Assembly: GCA_048320885.1 (NCBI GenBank)
Contig: JBLWFJ010000001.1
Span: 1,413,642-1,477,641 of the forward strand
Reading direction: 5' to 3'
Origin: Nannocystaceae bacterium ST9
GTDB taxonomy: Bacteria > Myxococcota_A > Polyangia > Nannocystales > Nannocystaceae
DNA length: 64,000 bases
In this document: piece by piece, positions 2,193 to 17,622 of the stretch
Numbering within the stretch: position 1 is the stretch's first letter
Layout of the letters: the number at the start of each line of letters is the position of its first letter
The notes under the pieces: model-generated
What the model was told of the DNA's origin: nothing
The model's database searches: none
Seen by the model: only the letters and a program-made list of their open reading frames with translations
Position numbers and translations under genes: made by a program

Positions 2193-5100
2193 GTGCGGGG
2201 CATGAACGGCATGAACGGCATGACCGTCGACGAGTTGGTCCGACGCCTCGATCGCCTCGACCACACCGAGCGGCTCGCCGAGCTGATCGCCCATGGCCGC
2301 GCCCTCTCGCCGACCGACGCCGAAGCGCTGAGCCGGGCGCTCTTCGCCGGCGACGTGCACCGTCGACTGCTGGCACTTCAGCTCGCCCAGCTGGTCTCGA
2401 CCGGCGCCCGACCGAGCGCGCTGATCTGGCAGGCGCTCGACGATCGCTCGCTCGCGGTCCGCAGCCTGGCCGCCAAGCTGGTCGGCCGCGACGCCGACGC
2501 GGTCCCGATCGCGCTGCTCGATCGGCTCGACGCCGCCTCGCTCTCGGTGTTGTTTCGCCGGGTCGTCCGCCAGGGTCGAGCCGCGATCGCCGAGCCGCTG
2601 GTCGAGGGCCTGATCGCCCGCGAGCGCATGGCCGAGGCTTGCTACCTGCTGCCGGTCTGTCGGGTCGAGGCGATCCTCGGCTGGCTCGACGCGGTCGCCT
2701 GGCCCGAGACGATCTGGATCCGCCTGGCCAAGTACCGCGCCCCCCTGCTGATCGATCGGATCACCGCGGCCTTCGCCGCGACGCCGGAGCGACCCGACCT
2801 GATCTGGCGACGCTTCCACCCGGGCGTGTGGGCCCGGCTGGCCCGACGCGAGCCGGCGACCCTGGCCGCGTGGATCGATCGCCACGCCGACGCCGAGTCG
2901 CTGCCCCACGAGCTGGCCTCCGCGCTGCCCCACCTGGTCCGCTGGTCGCCGACGTGGATCGCCGGCGTGCTCGGAGCTCGCGTCGCCTGGGTCGCGCAGA
3001 TCGGGCTGCCCAAGGGCCTGGCCGCCCGCGCGAGCGAGGTCGACGACGCGACCCTGGCCCCGCTCGTCCGCGGGCTCGCACGCTCGGCCCCGCACCTGCT
3101 CGGCCAGCTGCTCGCGCGCATGCCCTACCCGCGCCGCGCGAGCCTGTTCGCGCTGGCGATCGAGCCGCTCGAGACCGCGAGGATCGAGTGGCCGACCAGC
3201 CTGCTCGCGGTGCTGCCGACGGCGCTGCGCGATCGCGAGGCCGCCCGCATGCTCGCGCTGACCCGAGCCCGCACCGACGCGACCTGGCGGCGCGAGCTGC
3301 TGGGCCTGCGATCGATCGTCGCCGCTCGGCCCGAGCTCGAGCGCGAGGGCCAGTCTGCGCAGGCCAGCGATCGCGCCGAGGCCCACGCCGCGCTGGTTCG
3401 CAGCAGCTGGCGCTCGCGCGCCGGCATGCCCGAGACGCTCGCGTGGCTCAAGCGGATCCGCAACGAGCAAGACCCGGTGCGGCTCGCCGTCATGATCGCG
3501 CTCGCCGAGGCGCCCGGTCACCACTTCGACGATCCCGGCGCGCTCGATCTCGTGGTCGCGCCGATCTTCGACGCCCGCGACACCTCGTACGCCACGCGGC
3601 ACCAGGTCGCCCGGCTCGCGCATCGGCTGATGGTCGCCCGCGCGACCGAGCCGAGCTCGCCGATGTTCGAGTTCGGGATCAGCCTGCTCGAGCGGCTGGC
3701 CGGACAAGCCGGCACGCCCGATCTGCCCAACCTCGAGCGCAACCTCCCGCGCGGCGCCGAGCAGGCGATCGTCGACGCGCTCTTGCCTTGGGCCGAGGCC
3801 GCGGGCGAGCGCCGGCAAGAAGATCACCTGGTCCGGCTGTGGACCTCGCTCGGCAAGCGAGCGTGGAAGGTCGCGGCGCTCGGCGAGCGGATCGCCCACC
3901 TGATCTGGCAGGGCAGCAAGGCCGGCGCGCCCTACCGCGTCGCGCACTGGCTGGCCGATCCTCGCACCCGCGACGCGCGAGTCCGCGAGCTGGTCAAGCG
4001 CGATCGCTCGGCGCTCTACCTGCACCCGGTGTTCGAGCACTGCCACCGTCGCCGCCAGTCCCTGCTCGTCGATCGCTTCGCTACCACGGCCCCGCGCGGC
4101 CGCTTTCACGACGGCAAGGTCGTGCTCATCCCGATCGTCGATCGCGGGTTCGAGCGCTGGCCGAGCGAGCTGCAGCGCCAGTACGTCGAGTTGATCGCGC
4201 TGGCCGAGATCGAGCCCAAGCACTTCTCGCAGACCCGCGCCGCGCTGATCTCGATGCGCGCGCGCGTGCCGATCACGAGGGTCGAGGACTTCGCCGACGC
4301 GCTGGCCTCGAGCGAGGTGCCCGTGCGAGAGGCCGCGCTCGCGGCCCTGGTCTGGACCGACGATCCCGCGCCCGCGCTGGCGATCCTGCTCGATCACCTC
4401 GAGGGCGATCAGGCCAGGGTCGCGATGTATGCGATGCCGCGCCTGGCTCGCCTGATCGCCCGCGACCGCTTCGTCGACGCGCTCGCCGAGCTGCTCGCCC
4501 GGCCCAAGCTCAAGGTCACCGTGCACAAGGAGGCCCTGCGCCTGCTCGGCCAGCTCGCGACTCCCCGAGCGATCGCGCTGCTTCGCCAGACCTGGACGCA
4601 GCCGCTGCATCGCGACGTCCGGATCGCCACGCTGCACGCCGCGCGATCGATCCTCAGCCAGGCCGACGCATGGACGATCCTCGCCGAGGCGGCCCGCGAC
4701 GGCGACGCCGACATCGTCCGCGCCCTCGTCGAGGTCCCGCTGATCACGATCGCCGAGCGCCACCGCGGCCGCTACCTCGAGGTGATGCGAGCGGTCGTCG
4801 ATCATGCCAGCCCGATCGCTCGCGCGGCCCTGTTCGCGACGCTGGTCGGCGGCTGGTCGAGCGTCGATCCACGCGTGGCCGTCGAGATCGCCACCAAGGT
4901 GATCGCCCGCATGGATCCCAGCGATCCTTGGCGAGCGGCCGCGCAGGTGGTGGCCGAGGGCGCGCGCTCGAGCGACGTGCACGCCCGGATCGAAGCGTCG
5001 ATCGCCGAGCTGATCGCGGCCGCCGAGCGAGACGTCGCGCCCGCGGGCGAGCGCGATCGCATCGCGCATCAGCGGCTGGTCGGCGTGATCGAGGGACTCG

Positions 5101-5528
5101 CCAACCAGCGCCACCCGATCGCCACCGTGCTGCTCGAGCGACTCGCCGCCGCGCTGCTGAGTCAGCCACATTGGTGGTGGGCCGGGGCGCGCCTGCGGAT
5201 CGCCGCCGCGAGCAACGAGCGGCTCGCCAGCGTATGCGTCGAGCTGATCCGCGCGGCCCCGAGCGAACGTTCGCGACGCGTGATCGAAGACGCGGCCCGG
5301 GCCGCCGCGCAGCTGGCCCTGCGGGACTGGAGCGCGAGCGAGGCCGAGCAAGCGCTCGCCGACCTGCGCGCGGGCGAGGCCGGGGTCGTGGCGGTCGCGA
5401 TGCTCGCGGTGTTCGGGCCGCGCTGGGGGTGGGGTGCTGGCTGGGTCGCGGAGCTCGGCGAGCTGCGCGAGGATCCGGAGCTCGACGTGCGGCTGGCCGC
5501 GCGGGCGGTGTGGTTGGTGAGTGGGTGA
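2193..5528 (+). CDS. Large alpha-helical HEAT/ARM-like repeat protein (~1100 aa), function unknown
   Basis: Leu/Ala-rich, non-degenerate composition across 1111 aa. A GTG at 2193 is followed by ATGs at 2202, 2211 and 2220 (MNGMNGM), so the true start is uncertain. The opposite-strand and alternative-frame ORFs 2175..5351 and 2639..5548 are R/G/P-rich artefacts. Confidence 0.6.
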   Translation: MRGMNGMNGMTVDELVRRLDRLDHTERLAELIAHGRALSPTDAEALSRALFAGDVHRRLLALQLAQLVSTGARPSALIWQALDDRSLAVRSLAAKLVGRDADAVPIALLDRLDAASLSVLFRRVVRQGRAAIAEPLVEGLIARERMAEACYLLPVCRVEAILGWLDAVAWPETIWIRLAKYRAPLLIDRITAAFAATPERPDLIWRRFHPGVWARLARREPATLAAWIDRHADAESLPHELASALPHLVRWSPTWIAGVLGARVAWVAQIGLPKGLAARASEVDDATLAPLVRGLARSAPHLLGQLLARMPYPRRASLFALAIEPLETARIEWPTSLLAVLPTALRDREAARMLALTRARTDATWRRELLGLRSIVAARPELEREGQSAQASDRAEAHAALVRSSWRSRAGMPETLAWLKRIRNEQDPVRLAVMIALAEAPGHHFDDPGALDLVVAPIFDARDTSYATRHQVARLAHRLMVARATEPSSPMFEFGISLLERLAGQAGTPDLPNLERNLPRGAEQAIVDALLPWAEAAGERRQEDHLVRLWTSLGKRAWKVAALGERIAHLIWQGSKAGAPYRVAHWLADPRTRDARVRELVKRDRSALYLHPVFEHCHRRRQSLLVDRFATTAPRGRFHDGKVVLIPIVDRGFERWPSELQRQYVELIALAEIEPKHFSQTRAALISMRARVPITRVEDFADALASSEVPVREAALAALVWTDDPAPALAILLDHLEGDQARVAMYAMPRLARLIARDRFVDALAELLARPKLKVTVHKEALRLLGQLATPRAIALLRQTWTQPLHRDVRIATLHAARSILSQADAWTILAEAARDGDADIVRALVEVPLITIAERHRGRYLEVMRAVVDHASPIARAALFATLVGGWSSVDPRVAVEIATKVIARMDPSDPWRAAAQVVAEGARSSDVHARIEASIAELIAAAERDVAPAGERDRIAHQRLVGVIEGLANQRHPIATVLLERLAAALLSQPHWWWAGARLRIAAASNERLASVCVELIRAAPSERSRRVIEDAARAAAQLALRDWSASEAEQALADLRAGEAGVVAVAMLAVFGPRWGWGAGWVAELGELREDPELDVRLAARAVWLVSG

Positions 5529-5529
5529 T

Positions 5530-7257
5530 TCAATCGACCAGGGTCTGACGCGCGATCAACTTGCTGAACGCACCGCCGCGAGCGAGCAAGTCGGCGTGCG
5601 TCCCTCGCTCGACGATCCGACCTCGCTCGAGCACCACGATCAGATCGGCGTCGCGGATCGTGCTCAGGCGATGGGCGATCACCAGGGTCGTTCGCCCGCG
5701 CTGGAGGGCGACCAGCGCCGACTGCACGATCGCCTCGCTCTCGGCATCGAGGGCGCTGGTGGCCTCGTCGAGGACGAGGATCTCGGGATCGCGGAGGATC
5801 GCCCGAGCGATCGCCACCCGCTGACGTTGACCACCGCTCAATTGCACGCCCCGTTCGCCGATCGACGTGTCGTATCCCGACTCGAGTTGCGCGGCGAATT
5901 GCTCGACATGGGCAGCGCGGGCGGCGGCCTCGACCTCGTCCTCGCTGGCGTCGAGTCGGCCATAGCGGATGTTCTCGCGGATGCTGCCGGCGAAGAGCAT
6001 CGGCTCTTGAGTCACGACCGCCATCCGGCCGCGGAGCTCGGCCACTCGCAGTGACCGAAGATCCACGCCGTCGATCGTGACACGACCCGCGCAAGGATCA
6101 TGGAGGCGAAGCAACAGGCGCGCGAGCGTGGACTTGCCGGCCCCGCTCGTCCCGACCAGCGCGCACGTCCGACCAGCGGGTATGTCGAGATCGATCCCAT
6201 CGAGCACTCGCTCTCCCCGGCCCGGATAGCGAAAATCGACCGATTCGAACTTCACCGCCCCGCGAATCGAGCCGAGCTGACGAGGATTCGGAGAATCCCG
6301 AATCTCGGCGCGAGCATCGAGCAGTTCGAATATTCGGGTCGTCGCGCCGCTCGCGGCTTGGAGATTGGTCCAGAGCCCCGCCAAGCCCTCGACCGCGCCG
6401 GCGACCAGCATCGTATAGAGCATGAATTCGGTCAGCTCGCCCGGGCTGATTCGACCGGCGATGACCATGCGCCCGCCCATGTAGAAGATCACGGCGACCG
6501 CCGTCAGGCTGGCGAACGACGAGAGCGACAGAAACCATCCACCCGCGGCGATGCGTCGACGCGCGAGCGCGAGCCCACGCGCGAGCGCTTCGGAGTACCT
6601 CCCCAGCTCGTACGATTCACGTGTGAACGCCTGAACGGTCTCGATCCCGACGATGCCCTGCTGCATCTCGGCGTTCGCCTCGGCCAGCGCATCTTGGCCA
6701 GCCCGCGCCAATCGACGAATGGCCCGACCACACAGATTCGTCACCACAATGAGCGGTGGGACCAGGGCCAACATCATCGCGGTCAGCGACGGATTTCGAT
6801 GAATCAGAATCGCCACGCCACCGAGCAGCGCCAGCGAATGGCGGGCGGCGAGCGAGAGATCACCGGACACCGCCCGATGCAGGCGCGCGACGTCGTCGGT
6901 CACGCGCGACATCAGCTCGCCGGTCCGGCGTCGGTGAAAGAAGCCGGGGGAGAGGCTCAACAGCCGCGAATAGACCGCGACTCGAAGATCCGCGACCACG
7001 CGCTCGCCGATCCACGCGACCTGCGAGTGGCGCAGGAACGAGAACAGGGCCTGGACGGCGAACAGCCCGATCAGGGTCAGCGTGATTCGCCCGAGCAACT
7101 CGGCATCCTGCGCGCCGAAGGCAGAATCGATGATCGCCCCGAAATAGTAGGGGTGAAGCAGCCCGATCCCGCTGGCGATGATCAGGAAGACGAACGCCGC
7201 GAACATGCGACGCCGGTAAGGCCAAGCCAGACCGAGCAGCCGCCGACCCTCATTCAC
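5530..7257 (-). CDS. ABC transporter, fused permease/ATP-binding exporter (MsbA-like, no peptidase domain)
   Basis: Six-TM N-terminal half, then Walker A GTSGAGKST, signature LSGGQRQRVAIARA and Walker B ILVLDEATSALD. The GTG start overlaps the stop of the upstream PDZ-protein gene (GTGA). Confidence 0.9.
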   Translation of the reverse strand: MNEGRRLLGLAWPYRRRMFAAFVFLIIASGIGLLHPYYFGAIIDSAFGAQDAELLGRITLTLIGLFAVQALFSFLRHSQVAWIGERVVADLRVAVYSRLLSLSPGFFHRRRTGELMSRVTDDVARLHRAVSGDLSLAARHSLALLGGVAILIHRNPSLTAMMLALVPPLIVVTNLCGRAIRRLARAGQDALAEANAEMQQGIVGIETVQAFTRESYELGRYSEALARGLALARRRIAAGGWFLSLSSFASLTAVAVIFYMGGRMVIAGRISPGELTEFMLYTMLVAGAVEGLAGLWTNLQAASGATTRIFELLDARAEIRDSPNPRQLGSIRGAVKFESVDFRYPGRGERVLDGIDLDIPAGRTCALVGTSGAGKSTLARLLLRLHDPCAGRVTIDGVDLRSLRVAELRGRMAVVTQEPMLFAGSIRENIRYGRLDASEDEVEAAARAAHVEQFAAQLESGYDTSIGERGVQLSGGQRQRVAIARAILRDPEILVLDEATSALDAESEAIVQSALVALQRGRTTLVIAHRLSTIRDADLIVVLERGRIVERGTHADLLARGGAFSKLIARQTLVD

Positions 7258-10159
7258 CCTGGATCACCACGCCGGCCGCCCGCTCGGTGTCGAGCGTGAC
7301 CGACGTCCCGATCGGCGCGATCAGTCGATACTGCAAGACATAGCGGCGACCGATCACGTCGTAGCCGTCGATGGCCGTGATCACGTCGCCGACCTGCAGG
7401 CCCGCGCGTTCGGCCGGACCCCCGGATACGATCGCCTCGACCCGCCCGTCCTGCTCGGCTTGGTCGCCGACGTGATCCCAGCGCGCCAGCGTGAACCCGA
7501 ACGAGGCCCGCGGCTCGTCGCCCTGCACTCGCCGCGAGGGGATCGCCAGATCACCGACCTCGAGCGGATTGCCCGGATCGACCGTCACCGTCAGGTGGGC
7601 CTCGGTGAGATCGGGCGGTCGAGCGTCGAGGTTCTCCGGGATCACGTGCAGCGTCACGCGTCCGGTCGGCGGATCCGAGACCACGAAGTGGCCCTGATCG
7701 TCGCTGACGTTGCGCGCGTCCTCTCGCGTGTAGCGGCTGCGCATCTGGGCCGCGAGCGAGGTCGCGACCACGCGAAACCCGGCCAGCGGAGCGCTGGTCT
7801 CGAGTCGCACGACTCGGCCGGACAGCATCGTGCGATCGTCGAGCGCCACGTCGCCGACGTCGACCTCGCCCTCGGCCTCGACCTCGGCCTCGGCGACGCC
7901 CGCCCCCGCGCTGGCGTGCACTCGAATCGCGTAGTCGCCGGCAGGTAGACCGGTGATCGACCAGCGCCCTTGCGAGCGCAAGAACGCCTCGCGCCGGCGG
8001 ACCTGCGCGTCGGCACGCACGACCTCGACGACCAACATGTCGGGCGCACGACCATCGCTCGAGTAGTGGGCCTTGCCGGTGATCTCGCCCGTGCCATGCA
8101 CGACCAGCTCGACCCGATCGCCCGGCGCGACCTCGGTCTGCCGAGCCTCGCCGCCACCTCGGACTCGCGCGCTCAGGGTGTAGCGATCCGGCTGCAGGTT
8201 GCGAATCTCGAACGAGCCGTCGAGCTCGGTCATCTTCGCCGCGCAGCGCTGACGGGGCAGCGCGCCGCGAGCCGGCTCGCTCGGCTCGGCGCACACGAAC
8301 GCCGAGCTCAGCGGCTCGCCGTCGGCCGCGACCACTCGCCCGGTGATCGCTCCATCGCGCGCCGCGACCACGAACTCGACCTCGCTGCGCCCACCGGCCT
8401 CGACCTTCACGGTCGCGTGGACGGCTTCGGCCCGCTCGGGGTCGACCAGCGACTGTCCGGTCGCACCGATCACGTCGACGCCGTAGTCGCCGGGTGGGAG
8501 GTGCTCGAACACGAAGCGCCCTGCTTCGTCGACGATCGTCTCACCGCGGAATCGCCCGTTGCTCGCGTGGCGCTGGACCAGGACGCGAGCTTCGAGGGCC
8601 GGCGACCCGCCTTGCTCGACCACGCGGCCGACCAACGCCGCGCCAGGACGCAGGCGGACCTCGAGCTCGTCCTCGGAGGGCAGCGTCGACTCGGTCGGCG
8701 TATCGAGCGGAAACCAACCCGGCGCGCTGGCCAGCGCCACGTACTTGCCGGCGTCGAGCCCGGTCAGTTCGAAGCGGCCTTCGTGATCGGCGATCGCGGT
8801 CGCGGCCGGCGTGGTCGCGCGAGTCGAGATCACCGCGACCAGAGCGTCCGGGATCGGCTTCGAGCCCGACTCGTCGAGGACTTGGCCGCGCAGGGTCAGG
8901 CCCTGCTCGACCTCGACGCGCAGCTCGCTTCGATCGTCGCGCACGCCGGACACCCGGACCGACTGCCGCTGCTCGACGGGTCGATGGCCGGCGCAGTCGA
9001 CCGCGACCTGGTACTCGCCCGCGATCGGCAGCGAGAGCTCGACGCGACCCGAGCCGTCGGTCGTCGCCGCGATCGCGAGCCCGATGTCTTCCTGGGTCAG
9101 TCGAAGGTTCGCGCCCGGGCAGCCCTGGCCGGTCTCGCGCACCACCACCTCGACGAGCACCGTGCTCCCGCGGTGAACCAGGATGTCGACGTCTTCTCGC
9201 CGTTCGGCGAACTCCAGCACGATCGCGCCCTCGCTCGTGCCGTAGCCCCAGGGTCCCTGGCTGGTGACCTGGAACGCGCCGGCCGACATGCCCGCGATCC
9301 GATAGCCGCCCGCCGCGTCCGAGCGCACCGAGAAGCGCTCGTCGGCGCGCGCCTGACCATCGTCGTCGCTCCGCCGCGCGATCACGAGGGCGTCGGCGAT
9401 CGGCTCGCGCGTCTCGGCGTCGAGCACCTTCCCGGCGATCACCGACTCGGGCAGGAGTCGGAGCACGACCGGACCGCTGGGCACGATCAATCGCTCTTCG
9501 CTCGCGGCATAACCTTCGGCGACCGCCCGAACCACGACCTGCCCCTGCGCGGCCCACAGCTCGAATTCGCCGCCGGGCCCCGAGTGCGCCGCGGCGAAGC
9601 TCGCCTCGCCGGCATCGACGACGCTGACGAACGCGCCCTCGATCACTCCGCCGGTCGCGTCCTCGATGCGACCGGCGATCCGACTCCCGCCGGGGGTCAA
9701 GATCACGCGAACGAGTCCCTCGCTCGGCTCGAGCTCGCCGAGGCGCGGGATCGAGGCCGGGCGATACCCGGCCGCAGAGACTCCGATGCGCCAGCGCTCG
9801 CCGCTCGGCACTTCCAAGCCGTCCGCGAGCCCGGCGGAGTCGGTGGTCACACAGCGCTGCTCCGCGCTCGAGCGAGCCGGGATCGCCAGACACACGCGAG
9901 CGGACGGGATCGGTGCGTCGGATCGATCGACGACCGCGACCGCGATCGTTCGCGGCTCGGCGCGCTCGATTCGCGACTTGCTGGTTTGGGCTCGGGCAGG
10001 GTCCACGAGCTCGGGCTCAGCTGCGAGTTGCGGCTCGTCCGAGCTCGCGCGCTCGGGCTCGAGACCGAGCCACAGACTCACTCCGAGCACACCGAACGCC
10101 GCGACGAGCAGCGCGAGCAGCCAGGTTGGTCGCGAGTTTCGTGGTTGTCGGATGGTCAT
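7250..10159 (-). CDS. Membrane-anchored protein with many carboxypeptidase-regulatory-like beta-sandwich repeats and a C-terminal PDZ domain
   Basis: The ATG at 10159 overlaps the stop of the upstream gene (ATGA). The N-terminal TM segment is TWLLALLVAAFGVLGVSLWLGL. Recurring ~80-aa units carry the motif G.V.D...G.P...A.V (DSAGLADGLEVPSGERWRIGVSAAGY..., ATTDGSGRVELSLPIAGEYQVAVDCAGHRP...). The C-terminal segment GLQVGDVITAIDGYDV is PDZ-like. Confidence 0.7.
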   Translation of the reverse strand: MTIRQPRNSRPTWLLALLVAAFGVLGVSLWLGLEPERASSDEPQLAAEPELVDPARAQTSKSRIERAEPRTIAVAVVDRSDAPIPSARVCLAIPARSSAEQRCVTTDSAGLADGLEVPSGERWRIGVSAAGYRPASIPRLGELEPSEGLVRVILTPGGSRIAGRIEDATGGVIEGAFVSVVDAGEASFAAAHSGPGGEFELWAAQGQVVVRAVAEGYAASEERLIVPSGPVVLRLLPESVIAGKVLDAETREPIADALVIARRSDDDGQARADERFSVRSDAAGGYRIAGMSAGAFQVTSQGPWGYGTSEGAIVLEFAERREDVDILVHRGSTVLVEVVVRETGQGCPGANLRLTQEDIGLAIAATTDGSGRVELSLPIAGEYQVAVDCAGHRPVEQRQSVRVSGVRDDRSELRVEVEQGLTLRGQVLDESGSKPIPDALVAVISTRATTPAATAIADHEGRFELTGLDAGKYVALASAPGWFPLDTPTESTLPSEDELEVRLRPGAALVGRVVEQGGSPALEARVLVQRHASNGRFRGETIVDEAGRFVFEHLPPGDYGVDVIGATGQSLVDPERAEAVHATVKVEAGGRSEVEFVVAARDGAITGRVVAADGEPLSSAFVCAEPSEPARGALPRQRCAAKMTELDGSFEIRNLQPDRYTLSARVRGGGEARQTEVAPGDRVELVVHGTGEITGKAHYSSDGRAPDMLVVEVVRADAQVRRREAFLRSQGRWSITGLPAGDYAIRVHASAGAGVAEAEVEAEGEVDVGDVALDDRTMLSGRVVRLETSAPLAGFRVVATSLAAQMRSRYTREDARNVSDDQGHFVVSDPPTGRVTLHVIPENLDARPPDLTEAHLTVTVDPGNPLEVGDLAIPSRRVQGDEPRASFGFTLARWDHVGDQAEQDGRVEAIVSGGPAERAGLQVGDVITAIDGYDVIGRRYVLQYRLIAPIGTSVTLDTERAAGVVIQGE

Positions 10160-11916
10160 GCCGCGCTCTCTCGATTCATGAGTCGGTCGATGGAAATGAT
10201 CACGCTCGGCCAATCGCCACGCCCGGTCAGGGCGTCGAGGACACCTTCGTACAGTTCGCGACGCTGCTCGTCACGAATCCGCGCGATGACGAAACTGCGA
10301 GTGACGGAGATCTCCTCGTCCGCCACGGTCGGCCAGTCGGTCTGCGCGGCGAGCCGAATTGCGGCGAGCGTATCGAGGTCGCTGCGGCCCTCGGCGATCG
10401 AGCGTGCACCGACGTACACGAGGACATCGATACACAGGGGGCTGCGACTCCGCTCACCGAGCGCGCACGCCAGCGCGGTCAGCGGGCGCTCGTCTTCGAC
10501 CGGGGCCAGGTACGTAAACAGGTTTCGATGGGCGATCGGCTCGAGCGGTTCGCCCGTGTCGATGTGACCGAGATGATCGAACCGAGCGTCGACCGTCAGG
10601 GCGCGAGCGTCGATGCCCCTGGCGCGGGCCAGCTGAAGCACGTAGTGGCCGAAGCGCTGCTGGGCGTCCGGCACACGCAACAGTGACGACGCGAACTTGC
10701 GCAAGCGATGGTTCCACACCGTGCGCTTGTCGAGCAGCGGATCTTCATCGAACAAGCCGATGGTCTGGTTCCAACCCCACTTGCGGATGCGCCCCTCGCC
10801 GTCCGTCGAGGTCATCACCAGGGTCACCAGCCGCCCGGCGGGCGGGTTGCCCGAAAAGAGACGCCAACGTCGGACCATCCCGATTCGACGAAACAGCGGC
10901 CCGAGCCGCTCGCGGATCACCCTCGACACCAGCGAGCCATGCGGCGGATCCCAATATAGCGCGAACACGACGTACGCGCACGCCACCGATAATCCCAGGA
11001 TCATGCCGAGACTCGTCTGTGGACCCCAGGCGTGGATCGAGATCTCCCCGATCGCGAAGAACCAGCGAGGATCGATGAACACGCACAAACAGCCGAACAT
11101 GATGTAGCTGAACAACCATAGGCTGAATGCATATGCGATCGCCAGATGCAACGCCACGGCGCACACCAAGAGACTCGGCCGAAGTTCGGCGATCCAGAGT
11201 CCGAATCCGAGCGCGAACTCCAGAGCCAACGTGCCCCACGTACCCAGCGCGACCATCGGTCGCGTCATGAAAACTCGCGGAATCGGCAATCGGTGGTTTC
11301 GTATGTCGGCGTTGTTCAAGGGATAGAACACGGCGGTGCCCTCGCGCCAGGCCGCGTGCGCCAGCTTGTACCAGCAGTTGTAGAAATAGAGGACGGCCAA
11401 CTCGATCTGCAACAACCGCATGCCCCAAGGCGGCGCCTCGACTCCGACGCCGAGATCGCCCGCGGTCAGCCAGCGATCCAACGACAACGACGCGGTGCAG
11501 GGCGAGCACGCCAACAGCAGCACGGCCATTCGCAGCACGGCGTCTCCACCATAGAGCACGTAGCGGTTGGCGCGATGGATGCGTCGAAATGTCAGATAGG
11601 CCAAACCGGCGGGGACGCTGCCCCCGAGACCGAGCGCGAGCAAGACCCCGAACCCACAGTGCGCGACGAGATACACCCGTGGCCGCCAGCTCATCTCGAC
11701 GATTCGCCACCACACCCCCGACGCCGAAGGTCGCCGCCGCAGGCCGAGCGCGTCGGGGTTCAGCCAGACGTCGGCGTCGACGAGATGCCGAGCGCCGTCG
11801 ACGACCAACAGCGAGCCGAGCATCGCGCGGGCCATACCCAACCCGAACACCAGGATCGGCGCGGTGAAGAAATCGACCAACCAGGTCGCCAAGGTGGACA
11901 ACGATATCGGCTCCAT
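10156..11916 (-). CDS. Polytopic membrane protein, possible HTTM (vitamin-K gamma-carboxylase-like) superfamily member with a C-terminal soluble domain
   Basis: ATG at 11916 (MEPISLSTLATWLVDFFTAPILVFGLGMA...). About eight hydrophobic helices in the first ~330 aa are followed by a ~250-aa soluble region. The family assignment is pattern-based and unverified. Confidence 0.55.
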   Translation of the reverse strand: MEPISLSTLATWLVDFFTAPILVFGLGMARAMLGSLLVVDGARHLVDADVWLNPDALGLRRRPSASGVWWRIVEMSWRPRVYLVAHCGFGVLLALGLGGSVPAGLAYLTFRRIHRANRYVLYGGDAVLRMAVLLLACSPCTASLSLDRWLTAGDLGVGVEAPPWGMRLLQIELAVLYFYNCWYKLAHAAWREGTAVFYPLNNADIRNHRLPIPRVFMTRPMVALGTWGTLALEFALGFGLWIAELRPSLLVCAVALHLAIAYAFSLWLFSYIMFGCLCVFIDPRWFFAIGEISIHAWGPQTSLGMILGLSVACAYVVFALYWDPPHGSLVSRVIRERLGPLFRRIGMVRRWRLFSGNPPAGRLVTLVMTSTDGEGRIRKWGWNQTIGLFDEDPLLDKRTVWNHRLRKFASSLLRVPDAQQRFGHYVLQLARARGIDARALTVDARFDHLGHIDTGEPLEPIAHRNLFTYLAPVEDERPLTALACALGERSRSPLCIDVLVYVGARSIAEGRSDLDTLAAIRLAAQTDWPTVADEEISVTRSFVIARIRDEQRRELYEGVLDALTGRGDWPSVIISIDRLMNRESAA

Positions 11917-11924
11917 CGGTGTCC

Positions 11925-13172
11925 TCACGCGCGTGGCGCGTCCAGCCACGCGCCCACCCCCTTGCGAACCAACAGCTTGCCGAGCATCAGCTGGTCGTCT
12001 TCGCCCAGTTGGGCGAACGTTCGCACGACCACGGGGCCTTCGGCGCCACAGAGCTGTCGAAGCGAAGCCTCGAACTTGGCCGGCAACAAGAGCGCGTGAT
12101 TGTTGGCCTCGATTCGGCAAGCGGGAAGCCGACCTGGACCCTCGAGCACGCGAATCAAGGGACGGTCGCCCAGCGCGACTCGGCTGTCCAACGTCATCGC
12201 GTCGAGGTCGGCGAGCGCCGCGAGCCGACCCGCGGCCATGCAGTATTGCTGACGCCGGAGATCGTCGTGCAACCGCGCGACACCGGCCTCGGGCTCGAGG
12301 TGCGCCAACGAGCGCTCCAACCCCGCCCGGGTCGCCGCGATGGCGAGCTCGTCCTCGTCGGCCGCAGCGTCGAGGCGAGGCGAAAACAGCGCTCGACGGA
12401 GGGCCGGGTCTTCGGCGATCTCCGCGAGCGCACGATCGAACGCCCGCGAGACCGCGTCGTAGACCGTGAAGGGCCTGACCCCGATCGCCACGTGAATGCT
12501 GACCCCCTCGCTTCGCTCCGCAAAATGAGGAAACCCGCGAGGGATGTAGAGAGTGTCTCCGGGGCCCAACTCCACGTCGAGCACCAGATCGTCGGCGCTG
12601 GTTCGTGCCACACCGAAATTTCGCTGGTGTGGAAGCGGGGCCACGAAGCGCGGTGCGTAGACCTTCCAGCGCTTGCGACCGCGGACCTGCAGGGCGAACA
12701 CGTCGACGATGTCGTAGTGGAGATCGAGCGCCGACTCGGAGGCGGACGTCGGCGTGACGATCACGTGGCCCTCGGTGCAGGAGTTGAACACTCCCGCGAT
12801 CGTCCTGGCGAGCGCACAGATCCGCGGAAAGTTGGTCTCGGTGAAGGTCAACACGAGCGAAGCGCCACGCGCGAACTCGTCGAGCACCCGCTCGGTGTCC
12901 AACTCGTTGGCCAGGTGCTTGTTCGGTGAATAATGACGCGTGGACAGGTACTGTCGTGGTGCGATGGATCCCTCGCGCGACAACCTCAGGGTCGCGCGAT
13001 TGAAAGCGCCAATCAGCAACGCTCGCTCGATCTCGTCGAGATCGACGAGATCACTGAACCGCGAGGGATCGTCGCGGACGATGTGGCGTGCTCGTCGCTC
13101 CCAGAGCGTCGCAGTGAACTCCGCCAAAGTCACCGGCGCCAATAGCTTGGCGATTGCGTCGGCGTCGGTCAT
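11925..13172 (-). CDS. JmjC-domain / cupin-4 family 2OG-Fe(II) oxygenase (RoxA/YcfD-like protein hydroxylase)
   Basis: ATG at 13172 overlaps the upstream stop (ATGA). The motif LDLHYDIVDVFALQVRGRKRWKVY matches the cupin_4 HxD..DVF..Q..G.K.W core. Confidence 0.8.
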   Translation of the reverse strand: MTDADAIAKLLAPVTLAEFTATLWERRARHIVRDDPSRFSDLVDLDEIERALLIGAFNRATLRLSREGSIAPRQYLSTRHYSPNKHLANELDTERVLDEFARGASLVLTFTETNFPRICALARTIAGVFNSCTEGHVIVTPTSASESALDLHYDIVDVFALQVRGRKRWKVYAPRFVAPLPHQRNFGVARTSADDLVLDVELGPGDTLYIPRGFPHFAERSEGVSIHVAIGVRPFTVYDAVSRAFDRALAEIAEDPALRRALFSPRLDAAADEDELAIAATRAGLERSLAHLEPEAGVARLHDDLRRQQYCMAAGRLAALADLDAMTLDSRVALGDRPLIRVLEGPGRLPACRIEANNHALLLPAKFEASLRQLCGAEGPVVVRTFAQLGEDDQLMLGKLLVRKGVGAWLDAPRA

Positions 13173-13954
13173 GGCGCCCCCGCGCGCGACCGAGTCGATA
13201 TCCACCGCGTGCGATCGAGCAATCGATCGACGGCCTCGTCGGTCAGGCGAAATCCACAGCTGACTCGGCGTGTTCGCGTGGTCACGGCATGCCAGAACAA
13301 GGGTGACTCGCTCCTCACCGAGAATAGATTGAGCACACCGGCGCGCTCCGGCATTCGTACGACTCGGGTGCCGTCCCAATAGCGAAAATCGCTGCCCTCG
13401 TCGTCGTCACAATGGACGACGTAGGCTCGCCAGCCGGCCTCCTGGGCTCGATTCGAATGCCAAGGCACGAACCCGCCACGTGGGCACAGGTTCAACCCGC
13501 GAATGCGATCGAAGCCCTCTCCGATGCAGGTCCGCCACGTGGCTTCGAGGGCGCGTATTGCCGGCGCGTGCATGCGGCCGAGCAGGACGCCTCGATACTG
13601 CAACGCCACCCGCCGTCCCCCTCGGCGTAGCTCGCACGCAAACGGATTTGCAGGATCGCTCGCCTGGTGACGAACGACGCCGTCCCACTCGGTCGCTTGG
13701 GCTTCGGCGTACGTGCGTCGACCGGAGTGCCACCAATCACGCAGTTGCTCTTCCACGGTCGCGCGACTCACGTCGACGGCGCCCTGGGTCATGTGACCGA
13801 GTTCCTGGTCTTCGCGGGACAACAGCGGGGCCATGTCGACGATGGGCACGACCTCGCAGAGCGCCTGAGCAATCACCCGAGTCGCCAGCCACGCGCGCGT
13901 CCCCTCGTTCGTCGAACACAGGTCGATCTGATAGACCCACTCACTCATCGACAT
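13169..13954 (-). CDS. Hypothetical protein, 261 aa, possibly a second oxygenase/cupin-like enzyme; first enzyme gene after the precursor-like ORF
   Basis: ATG at 13954 (MSMSEWVYQIDLC...) with non-degenerate composition. Contains WHSN...VVHCDDDEG...FWHAV His/Asp clusters. No family could be recognised with confidence. Confidence 0.5.
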   Translation of the reverse strand: MSMSEWVYQIDLCSTNEGTRAWLATRVIAQALCEVVPIVDMAPLLSREDQELGHMTQGAVDVSRATVEEQLRDWWHSGRRTYAEAQATEWDGVVRHQASDPANPFACELRRGGRRVALQYRGVLLGRMHAPAIRALEATWRTCIGEGFDRIRGLNLCPRGGFVPWHSNRAQEAGWRAYVVHCDDDEGSDFRYWDGTRVVRMPERAGVLNLFSVRSESPLFWHAVTTRTRRVSCGFRLTDEAVDRLLDRTRWISTRSRAGAP

Positions 13955-13983
13955 GCTCGCGGTTCACGAAGGAGGATTGAAGG

Positions 13984-14003
13984 TCCCCGGATCCGTCCGG
14001 GGA
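13984..14003 (-). terminator. Perfect 8-bp stem / 4-nt loop hairpin (TCCCCGGA tccg TCCGGGGA) 6 nt after the precursor stop, a possible partial terminator or attenuator
   Basis: Inverted repeat read directly from the sequence. No strong U-tract follows, so read-through into the enzyme genes is expected. Confidence 0.3.
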
Positions 14004-14009
14004 TTCTCG

Positions 14010-14258
14010 TCAGCCAGACGCGAGATCGTCGGTCAGATCACCAGTGACGTCGTCGGTGTCCGTGGCGTCCGTGGACGTGGACGTGGTGCCGCCGAAGTCA
14101 CCCACCCAATCATTCGATTCGAGTGCAGACACCCGGCCGCCGGCGATTGCGATGAGCCTGGCCTCCCACCACGCGTCGGAGCCAGGTTGGAGTTCGGGTG
14201 TCGTTGGATTCTGTTTATTCTGATCCGATACCGGATCCTGGTCATGTTTCTTGGTCAT
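14010..14258 (-). CDS. Candidate precursor peptide (82 aa): leader ending ...EARLIAIAGG, then an Asp/Thr/Ser-rich acidic core
   Basis: The ATG at 14258 is preceded by GGGAAAA. Codon usage is unusually A/T-rich for this genome (aaa cat gat gta aat aaa aat cca aca gaa caa). Product: MTKKHDQDPVSDQNKQNPTTPELQPGSDAWWEARLIAIAGGRVSALESNDWVGDFGGTTSTSTDATDTDDVTGDLTDDLASG. It is the first gene of the modification/export operon. Confidence 0.4.
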   Translation of the reverse strand: MTKKHDQDPVSDQNKQNPTTPELQPGSDAWWEARLIAIAGGRVSALESNDWVGDFGGTTSTSTDATDTDDVTGDLTDDLASG

Positions 14259-16291: not shown

Positions 16292-17181
16292 CTAGCGATT
16301 CGTCCGCAGCGGGATCAATCCGGCCGAAGATCCGGCCGAAGATCCGGCCGAAGATCCGGCCGAAGTCGACTCGCCGCTCGCTTTCGCGTGCGCCTGCCAG
16401 ACCGCGGCGAGCTCGCGATCGAGCAAGTGACTGGGATGCACGTGCTCGAGCGCCCCGAGCATGCTCGCGCGGATCCGCGGGTTGTCGCGCTCGAGCGTGT
16501 CGAGCAGCTCGCGCATCCTCTCGCGCTGCAGGCCGCTCTGCGATCCACACAGGTTGCAAGGCAGGATCGGATAGCCGGCCCACGCCGCGTGCTCGATCAA
16601 GTCGGCCTCGGCACAGCGGATCAGCGGACGGATCACCTCGAAGCGGCCATCGTCGGTCGTGTAGCGGGCCGGCATCGCCTGCAGCTTGCCGGCGAAGAAC
16701 AGGTTCATCAGCAGGGTCTCGAGCGCGTCGTCGCGGTGATGCCCGAGCGCGATCTTGTTGCAGCCGAGCCGCGCGGCGGTGGTGTAGAGGATCCCCCGAC
16801 GCATCCGCGAACACACGGCGCAGTAGGTCTTGCCCTCGGCGGTCTGCTCGATCACGGTCGAGTAGGTGTCTTCGCGGACGATCTCGAAGGGCGCGCCGAA
16901 GCGCTCGAGCCAGTCTCGCAGCAGGCTCCCCTCGTAGCCGGGCTGGACCTGATCGAGGTGGACGGCGGTCAGGCGAAACTCGATCGGCGCCCGGCCGCGC
17001 AGCTGCCAGAGCATGTCGAGCAGCGCGTAGCTGTCCTTGCCGCCCGAGACCGCGACCAGGATGTGATCGCCGGGCTGGATCAGCGCGAAGTCGCCGATCG
17101 CCTTGCCCATCGCGCGGGCCAGTCGGGCGCTGCAGGCCGGTCGCTCGCTCATCGTCATCGCTGTCATCGCTGTCATCGCTG

Positions 17182-17185
<4 letters not shown>
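16292..17185 (-). CDS. ttcA: tRNA 2-thiocytidine(32) synthetase TtcA (PP-loop ATPase)
   Basis: SGGKDS PP-loop motif plus CAVC and CNLCG cysteine pairs. An N-terminal MTAMTAMTAMT comes from a 9-nt tandem repeat (start ATG 17185, GGGAG upstream). A C-terminal (SAGS)x4 comes from a 12-nt repeat at 16315..16366. Confidence 0.85.
16315..16366. repeat. 12-nt tandem repeat (gatccggccgaa x4) in the ttcA 3' end
   Basis: Direct read of the sequence. Confidence 0.8.

Positions 17186-17622
<437 letters not shown>

Follow-up and report, generated by a model that had tools for sequence, protein, structure and literature searches.

A two-domain HTTM membrane protein encoded with a precursor-like peptide, a JmjC-type hydroxylase and an exporter in Nannocystaceae bacterium ST9

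The six-gene operon and its membrane-protein gene

A stretch of 64,000 nucleotides from Nannocystaceae bacterium ST9 (contig JBLWFJ010000001.1; the whole stretch, ~70% GC, is referred to here as the window) contains a gene for a membrane protein of the HTTM (vitamin K-dependent gamma-carboxylase) superfamily. This gene belongs to a compact minus-strand run of six genes at window positions 5530–14258, of which it is the fourth and which encode, in order, an 82-aa peptide, a 261-aa orphan protein, a JmjC hydroxylase, the HTTM protein, a CarboxypepD_reg/PDZ protein and an ATP-binding cassette (ABC) exporter. The genes are joined by 4-nt, ATGA and 8-nt overlaps, or are separated by an 8-nt gap, and the overlapping genes indicate co-translation. 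The operon contains the following features:

14010..14258, minus strand: precursor-like peptide gene, 82 aa, MTKKHDQDPVSDQNKQNPTTPELQPGSDAWWEARLIAIAGGRVSALESNDWVGDFGGTTSTSTDATDTDDVTGDLTDDLASG; the same 82-aa open reading frame (ORF) is annotated by NCBI (P0155)
13984..14003, minus strand: perfect GC-rich hairpin with an 8-bp stem, TCCCCGGA-cgga-TCCGGGGA, 6 nt past the stop codon of the peptide gene
13169..13954, minus strand: orphan protein gene, 261 aa, the stop of which overlaps the JmjC start by 4 nt
11925..13172, minus strand: gene for a JmjC_2 (ribosomal-oxygenase type) Fe(II)/2-oxoglutarate (2OG) hydroxylase, 415 aa (Pfam PF08007, E=1.1e-20)
10156..11916, minus strand: HTTM-superfamily membrane protein gene, 586 aa, ATG start, TGA stop
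7250..10159, minus strand: gene for a membrane-anchored CarboxypepD_reg/PDZ protein, 969 aa (Pfam PF13620 and PDZ families)
5530..7257, minus strand: ABC exporter gene (fused permease and ATPase), 575 aa, the last of the operon (Pfam ABC_membrane, ABC_tran)

Translation of 10156–11916 yielded 586 residues and a stop codon, one residue fewer than the 587 counted in an earlier note made from the DNA sequence alone; the four hydrophobic strings cited in that note were all found in the translation. A longer reading of 654 aa from a TTG at 12120 was rejected because the homologues all begin at the position equivalent to 11916 (MEPI, MEPIA, VEHL, METL); the extra N-terminus is Arg-rich and arises from an out-of-frame overlap with the upstream JmjC gene. 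NCBI annotation of the strain carries a 578-aa version of the gene, named 'HTTM domain-containing protein', with a 100% identical product. The stop codon of the HTTM gene overlaps the start of the next gene as ATGA, and the ABC exporter gene overlaps the gene preceding it by 8 nt.

On either side of the operon lie unrelated housekeeping genes, whose GC content at third codon positions (GC3) is 0.89–0.93. Within the operon, GC3 was 0.69–0.81, and 0.86 for the PDZ-protein gene, and these lower values suggest horizontal acquisition or a distinct codon usage. A simple scan for promoters and terminators was of no help in placing the operon's boundaries.

Family membership, fold and conserved residues

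Assignment to the HTTM superfamily had been made in the earlier note, with a search of Pfam family PF05090 named beforehand as the check, and it was borne out by that search. PF05090 matched residues 71–285 of the protein (E=4.7e-13; 49.8 bits, gathering score 27.7) and the relatives P0005–P0015 likewise scored above the gathering threshold. Human GGCX was the sole match in the PDB, weakly when the target sequence was used alone (E=0.035) and at E=1.3e-6 when a 15-sequence family profile was used, and hhalign comparison of a 133-sequence profile with GGCX residues 51–316 gave a probability of 99.1% (E=1.8e-18, 250 aligned columns). The HTTM match is well beyond chance, and the target protein belongs to the HTTM/GGCX superfamily.

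An AlphaFold model built on the 133-sequence alignment had a mean predicted local distance difference test score (pLDDT) of 91.3, compared with 47.6 from a four-sequence alignment. The predicted structure has a core of nine transmembrane (TM) helices at residues ~13–322 (window 10951–11880), which superposes on the TM domain of GGCX, and a soluble C-terminal domain of 265 aa at residues about 322–586 (window 10159–10950), composed of an alpha/beta subdomain and a four-helix bundle. The two-part architecture given earlier, about eight TM helices and a soluble domain of ~250 aa, was therefore retained while its helix count was not. The C-terminal domain alone matched no Pfam family. The only PDB sequences that it matched were designed helical repeats and an unrelated dehydrogenase, all weakly (best E=0.016), and these matches were set aside as composition artefacts of the helical bundle.

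Proteins of this two-domain type are rare. An exhaustive profile search of 1.84 billion representatives returned 2,894 HTTM hits, only ~15 clusters of which extend through the C-terminal domain, where W351, F354, W382 and H403-R404 are invariant or nearly so. A homology search with the 15-sequence alignment returned the same four proteins and nothing further, a scan of metagenome contigs with alignment A3 found no relative, and a scan of genome contigs found one locus only. Outside the group, the nearest proteins are uncharacterised HTTMs, either stand-alone or fused with DCC1 or TPR. On these sequence comparisons, the target is a member of a small, previously uncharacterised two-domain HTTM subfamily.

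The active site of GGCX provides a reference for the core of the protein. In GGCX, K218 deprotonates vitamin K hydroquinone with the help of D263 (PMC12589487, PMC12647623, PMC13486548), the quinone/CO2 pocket is lined by F294 and F299 (PMC12589487, PMC12647623), and the substrate Glu is held by N159, H160 and Y395 (PMC12589487, PMC12647623, PMC13486548). The following codons were placed by profile-PDB alignment and hhalign:

11365..11367, minus strand: Lys184 codon, equivalent to the GGCX catalytic base K218, within an invariant YFYNCWYK motif
11218..11220, minus strand: Glu233 codon, equivalent to GGCX D263, the acid partner of K218
11146..11148, minus strand: His257 codon, equivalent to GGCX H287

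By the same two methods F264 and F269 of the target align with GGCX F294 and F299. Across 133 diverse HTTM proteins, K184 and H257 were invariant and E233 nearly so, and the residues K184/E233/H257/F264/F269 were invariant or nearly so in the 15 subfamily members as well as in the 133 proteins; conservation of the HTTM catalytic residues had been proposed as a further check, and the Lys, the acidic partner and the His are all conserved. A Glu in place of D263 has precedent, as the D263E variant of GGCX keeps 25% activity and giant-virus homologues likewise have Glu there (PMC13486548). GGCX and the target thus share the superfamily fold and equivalents of K218/D263/H287/F294/F299, but their identity is 15% and the position of GGCX N290 is I260 in the target.

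The truncated vitamin K gamma-carboxylase (VKGC)-like 'vitamin K epoxidase' domains of giant viruses resemble the target in keeping the Lys, in having Glu for D263 and Ile for N290, and in being without the carboxylase-specific 374–418 region of GGCX (PMC13486548). This loop, with its M401/M402 CO2 trap, was not recognised in the target protein. The viral domains differ in being fused or adjacent to sterol or fatty-acid desaturases and VKOR, with a proposed lipid role (PMC13486548), whereas the partners of the target are a peptide, hydroxylases and an exporter, with no VKOR nearby.

Membrane orientation was assessed from loop charges. In all 15 subfamily members, the loops homologous to the lumenal (active-site-side) loops of GGCX contain 8–17 Lys+Arg and the opposite loops contain 1–3. 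Applying the positive-inside rule, K184 and the C-terminal domain are predicted, with about two-thirds confidence, to face the cytoplasm, so that the active site would be in the opposite orientation to that of GGCX. Whether the bias holds for bacterial HTTMs in general was tested on 133 proteins (alignment A4), and the idea was rejected; these generic HTTMs showed a weak or mixed loop bias (means 8.0 vs 5.6), with the active-site side higher in 63/133. The bias is specific to the subfamily, which weakens the inference of topology and does not remove it, and HTTM proteins may not all be of one membrane orientation. A cytoplasmic active site would suit an enzyme working between a cytoplasmic hydroxylase and an exporter.

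The precursor family, neighbouring proteins and related loci

The peptide encoded at the head of the operon belongs to a family of which ten sequences are known, with nine members found among 5.8 billion proteins. A GSxxWW(E/K)xRL...GG(R/D) segment is conserved among its members, which also share an N-terminus that is polar and variable and a tail with many Asp, Glu, Thr and Ser residues. Invariant positions in alignment A7 are G26, S27, W30, W31, R34, L35, G41, R42 and D50, and the tails are kept within subgroups as DDWxxD.GGTTxT...GITT(S/A)TLE, GDLTDDLASG and DDSTCCDLDSSTxxTW. The window precursor has the GG motif, and has no signal peptide and no Cys. Related loci were labelled L001–L014, some on contigs too short to show the whole neighbourhood; wherever context is readable, the precursor relatives adjoin JmjC/HTTM enzyme genes (L001, L004/L012/L013, L005, L006 and L014). 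The peptide is therefore of the type expected of a precursor for a peptide made on the ribosome and modified after translation (RiPP), a short ORF with a conserved recognition segment and a variable core beside tailoring enzymes (alignment A7 and six further peptides). The earlier description of a 'peptide operon', in which the HTTM protein is paired with an acidic peptide, holds, as the 82-aa ORF is conserved upstream of the same enzyme set elsewhere.

Numbering of the precursor against the propeptide positions of GGCX (-16 Phe, -10 Ala, -6 Leu) was considered and dropped as numerology. In L001, a 126-aa Cys-rich lipoprotein-like ORF (2171–2551) lies just upstream of the precursor gene and has no counterpart in the window.

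The 58-nt intergenic stretch with the hairpin was folded by RNAfold at -20.7 kcal/mol. A GC-rich hairpin directly after the peptide stop codon was present in 5/5 loci examined, namely the window, L001 (~3020–3045), L004 (~1618–1640), L005 and L006 (~7147–7175). A T-run comes after the L006 hairpin, as in an intrinsic terminator; the window hairpin is without one and for this reason was missed by the simple terminator scan. Hairpins after the stop codon are common for precursor genes. The hairpin is likely to be an attenuator or mRNA-stabilising element between the precursor and the enzyme genes, and would raise the precursor-to-enzyme ratio.

The JmjC protein has an intact H152-x-D154...H227 triad and K167, all invariant in alignment A6, and its closest solved relatives are NO66 (E=6.5e-33), MINA53, YxbC and YcfD. 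The 261-aa protein has the motifs PWH(S/T)N ... WH ... RxS, invariant in alignment A5 with homologues from L003, L005 and L006, and when read by eye alone these resemble the 2OG-oxygenase signature HxD...H...RxS with Asn replacing Asp. It had no Pfam match at E<=10 and no PDB sequence match, and hhalign detected no similarity to the Asp/Arg hydroxylase of L007. This ~260-aa orphan family is present at L003 (1–588), L005 (773–1555), L006 (7201–8004) and L014 (4897–5694; 265 aa, same position), and is absent from L001, L004 and L012.

Downstream of the HTTM gene, the 969-aa protein consists of an N-terminal membrane anchor, nine CarboxypepD_reg (transthyretin-like) repeats (PF13620, nine stretches, E=3.3e-74) and a C-terminal PDZ domain, and is predicted to be extracytoplasmic. 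Homologues of this ~960–970-aa family follow the HTTM or the ABC gene at L002 (2818–4116) and L012 (6576–9455). PDZ domains bind C-termini; several precursors end in similar ...SG or ...PG tails, and the PDZ protein could receive the exported peptide. The ABC exporter matched MsbA-related and bacteriocin-exporter families of NCBIfam, all below the equivalog cutoffs, and has no C39 peptidase domain (Pfam). No recognisable peptidase domain was found in any of the operon proteins (Pfam/NCBIfam), though an exporter is present.

The set of peptide, JmjC and HTTM genes recurs in at least eight independent loci (the window, L001, L003, L004, L005, L006, L012 and L014) in several arrangements. The order is peptide-JmjC-HTTM-ABC in L001, with a CarboxypepD_reg/PDZ gene added after the ABC gene in L012, 261aa-JmjC-HTTM in L003, JmjC-HTTM-CarboxypepD_reg in L002, peptide-260aa-JmjC-HTTM in L005, where the HTTM protein is only 35% identical, and JmjC-peptide-267aa-HTTM in L006 and L014. 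The JmjC gene adjoins the HTTM gene in L001–L005, L012 and L013, and in L006 and L014 the two are separated by one or two small genes.

More distant members of the subfamily lie in LanB-type peptide clusters (L007 1–13671, L009 1–15985), which contain genes for the N- and C-terminal parts of a LanB dehydratase, a C39-ABC exporter directly upstream of the HTTM gene, an Asp/Arg (AspH) or PhyH hydroxylase, a SQHop_cyclase_C protein, a methyltransferase and a conserved ~126-aa protein (RVLLGVL..TRWFRARF..FLDFAGL). L011 (1–8198) has the C39-ABC, PhyH, SQHop_cyclase_C and methyltransferase genes and is without LanB, the contig being cut upstream. One cluster of the L007/L009/L011 group is from a Polyangiaceae metagenome-assembled genome. 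A further member, L010, is in a cluster with Cupin_8, ABC and sulfotransferase genes. A 56-aa ORF of L009 has an FGG site and resembles an ordinary lanthipeptide precursor, from which it follows that the subfamily serves different core types. A hydroxylase of the Fe/2OG type was present in every locus examined.

These loci bear on whether the HTTM protein acts on the peptide at all. It might instead be a general membrane quinone or lipid redox enzyme that is in the operon by chance, given that most HTTMs are stand-alone proteins of ~300 aa with probably diverse functions and that a role in lipid modification has been proposed for the giant-virus homologues (PMC13486548). In at least 11 independent loci, however, the two-domain subfamily occurred in peptide-type clusters and nowhere else, although identities were 24–63% and gene orders were rearranged; together with the gene overlaps, and with flanking housekeeping genes that are unrelated and differ in GC3, this makes a chance association very improbable.

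The position of the exporter gene raises a different explanation. The HTTM gene has an ABC exporter gene beside it or close by in L001, L007, L009, L010, L011 and L012, that is, wherever the contig is long enough, and in L007, L009 and L011 the HTTM start is within 1–4 nt of, or overlaps, the stop of the C39-ABC gene; C39-ABC fusions occur only in the LanB-type relatives. Such tight adjacency would fit an accessory role like that of SdpB, in which the protein performs no core tailoring and aids proteolytic maturation, leader removal, membrane delivery, export with the ABC transporter or self-protection. The window operon is also without a recognisable leader peptidase, though its precursor has a GG motif. 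SdpB of Bacillus subtilis (NCBIfam TIGR04033) is likewise an HTTM membrane protein for maturation of a ribosomal toxin peptide; SdpB and SdpA are reportedly both required for maturation of the SdpC toxin, with no known carboxylation, and the NCBIfam model is named export_SdpB. The target nevertheless missed the TIGR04033 cutoff widely (46.2 bits vs 178.4; a partial match to residues 166–283) and is not a member of the SdpB family. SdpB is ~300 aa and has no equivalent of the C-terminal domain, and SdpC is Sec-exported and contains a disulfide, unlike the window precursor. No sdpA or sdpC family was recognised among the five neighbouring products (Pfam, NCBIfam) and no protease motifs were found. 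Strict conservation of the K/E/H/F active site and of the C-terminal motifs (W351, F354, W382, H403, R404) argues for catalysis rather than scaffolding, and a purely accessory role of this kind is considered unlikely.

The composition of the precursor tails points to a third possibility. Linaridin RiPP clusters contain an essential HTTM-type transmembrane protein, LinG/LinH or CypH/CrdG, loss of which abolishes the product and which has been proposed, without proof, to install dehydrobutyrine (10.1101/2020.07.09.196543; PMC9927463). LinG/LinH and their counterparts (CypH, LegG, CrdG) share with the target an HTTM membrane protein in a RiPP cluster, a neighbouring ABC exporter and a Thr-rich core. 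The target might therefore be a functional analogue of LinG/LinH (CypH) that helps to convert Thr/Ser to dehydrobutyrine/dehydroalanine, with no carboxylation. The precursor tails are very rich in Thr and Ser (e.g. GGTTSTSTDATDTDD, GITTSTLE), and hybrid LanB + LinE/G/L clusters occur in the linaridin survey, so co-occurrence with LanB does not exclude such a role. Gene content sets the two systems apart. Linaridins need LinE (an alpha/beta-hydrolase, fused in LinH) and LinL, and usually an N-methyltransferase, none of which was found in the window operon (Pfam/NCBIfam), and no LinE-type hydrolase domain was present in the target protein, the operon or the related loci; nor are the nearest relatives outside the subfamily hydrolase fusions. 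The subfamily described here has its own C-terminal domain and myxobacteria-type genomes, whereas linaridins are almost exclusively actinobacterial. L007 and L009 already have a LanB dehydratase, and the constant partner is an Fe/2OG hydroxylase, which has no role in linaridin biosynthesis. Taken together, a linaridin-like function appears doubtful.

Two neighbouring genes were recorded in passing. A 1111-aa ORF on the plus strand (window 2193–5528; GC3 0.91) converges on the 3' end of the ABC exporter gene; it had no Pfam match at E<=0.001 and is probably a real gene, given its very high GC3. A PP-loop ATPase gene on the minus strand (window 16292–17512) has short tandem repeats that keep the reading frame, MTAMTAMTAMT close to the N-terminus and SAGSSAGSSAGSSAG close to the C-terminus, where the opposite strand reads GRIFGRIFGRIF.

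Proposed role of the HTTM protein

The family membership and fold of the protein, its conserved core residues, and its conserved precursor and gene neighbourhood are together best accommodated, with confidence a little above even, if the HTTM protein is a quinol/O2-dependent tailoring enzyme of a RiPP-like pathway, which modifies a hydroxylated precursor at the membrane before export and binds the peptide through its C-terminal domain. We infer the use of a quinol, the membrane orientation, the order of the steps and the role of the C-terminal domain as follows. The 82-aa precursor would be made in excess, a notion in keeping with the hairpin downstream of its gene. The cytoplasmic JmjC Fe/2OG oxygenase would hydroxylate a side chain, and the 261-aa oxygenase-like protein may join in. 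At K184/E233/H257/F269 the HTTM core would then activate a quinol of the membrane with O2, in the way that GGCX treats vitamin K hydroquinone; in a myxobacterium this quinol would be menaquinol. The C-terminal domain would meanwhile hold the peptide, probably by its WWxxRL segment. Judged by the charge distribution, the modification would take place on the cytoplasmic face and be followed by export through the neighbouring ABC transporter, and, once outside the cell, the peptide would pass to the anchored CarboxypepD_reg/PDZ protein. Such a system would differ from that of GGCX in its substrate, a small Asp/Thr/Ser-rich bacterial peptide in place of a Gla (gamma-carboxyglutamate) domain, and in having a JmjC hydroxylase as an obligatory partner.

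The earlier note was wrong to allow hardly any bacterial precedent other than SdpB/SdpC, since both linaridin LinG/LinH and the malonomycin carboxylase MloH are precedents. MloH is described as a bacterial orthologue of the vitamin K-dependent carboxylases; its reported reaction, in malonomycin biosynthesis, is the carboxylation of an aspartyl residue (Law et al. 2018, Nat Catal, cited in PMC12186529, PMC12647623 and 10.64898/2026.08.19.745780). According to these accounts, MloH from Streptomyces is, like the target, a bacterial HTTM enzyme of a natural-product cluster with a peptidyl substrate, and its aspartyl target may be compared with the Asp-rich precursors found here. Its substrate is described as a hybrid polyketide/non-ribosomal intermediate and not a ribosomal peptide, and no non-ribosomal peptide synthetase or polyketide synthase genes were found in the window operon (Pfam). 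The same accounts set MloH apart as an HTTM fused to a DUF5819-like region, which was undetected in the target.

Three chemistries were considered for the tailoring step. By analogy with MloH and GGCX, Asp/Glu carboxylation is the leading candidate and would suit the acidic cores, though the target does not have the residues that bind Glu. One alternative is dehydration of Thr/Ser, with LinG/LinH as the precedent but with neither LinE nor LinL present. A further alternative is oxidation or elimination at a hydroxylated residue; it would explain the obligatory hydroxylase partner and is without precedent in the HTTM fold. The 'carboxylase-like' modification suggested at the outset is only one option; the superfamily and the K/E/H core agree with it, and the Glu-binding N159/H160 and the lumenal domain of GGCX do not. 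A more specific proposal can be framed in which a GGCX-like menaquinol/O2-dependent enzyme, with the JmjC protein acting as a beta-hydroxylase, carboxylates Asp/Glu of the ribosomal precursor on the cytoplasmic face, and a polyanionic metal-chelating product (containing Gla, beta-carboxy-Asp or hydroxy-Asp) is exported. As a complete account, this is regarded as possible and rather unlikely.

Several observations weigh against a quinol-dependent tailoring enzyme. The positions of the Glu-binding N159/H160 of GGCX are G123/G124 by phmmer alignment or R118/Y119 by hhalign, and in both alignment registers they vary across the subfamily. GGCX Y395 and R436 have no placeable counterpart, since the C-terminal region does not align, and no counterpart of the lumenal propeptide-binding domain of GGCX was detected in the C-terminal domain. 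No DUF5819 match was obtained at E<=10 in the target or in nine relatives, and domain searches found no VKOR-like quinone-epoxide reductase in the operon or its immediate flanks. On sequence alignment, the K/E/H core is common to essentially all HTTM proteins and so does not discriminate between chemistries; as it is also present in SdpB-like and linaridin HTTM proteins, it is no proof of quinol-dependent catalysis on a peptide. Core peptides differ greatly between the window-type and LanB-type clusters and no common target residue is obvious. The constant adjacency of HTTM and exporter genes is equally compatible with an export-accessory role. The cytoplasmic topology rests solely on the positive-inside rule, and the Arg-rich loops could reflect binding of an acidic substrate.

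The occurrence of HTTM proteins in peptide natural-product clusters is already known from linaridins, MloH and SdpB. In the literature searched, the two-domain subfamily, its strict pairing with an Fe/2OG hydroxylase, the WWxxRL precursor family and the predicted inverted orientation appear to be new. The role of bacterial HTTM proteins is a long-standing gap, with ~2,900 clusters matched and a defined reaction only for MloH. The operon offers a clean test system, comprising six genes, an identifiable putative substrate with a recognition motif, an obligatory hydroxylase and a confident model with the Lys/acid/His of GGCX. Should the reaction prove to be a carboxylation, CO2 fixation of the vitamin-K type would extend to ribosomal peptides in bacteria, a new RiPP class would be defined, and the precursor would become the first ribosomal peptide known as a substrate for a bacterial carboxylase of this type; if it occurs on the cytoplasmic face, the carboxylase fold would be able to work in an inverted membrane orientation. 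If the reaction is instead a dehydration or an oxidation, it would inform the unsolved mechanism of linaridin biosynthesis. The peptide/JmjC/HTTM cluster and its LanB-type cousins also provide genome-mining handles for the natural products of myxobacteria.

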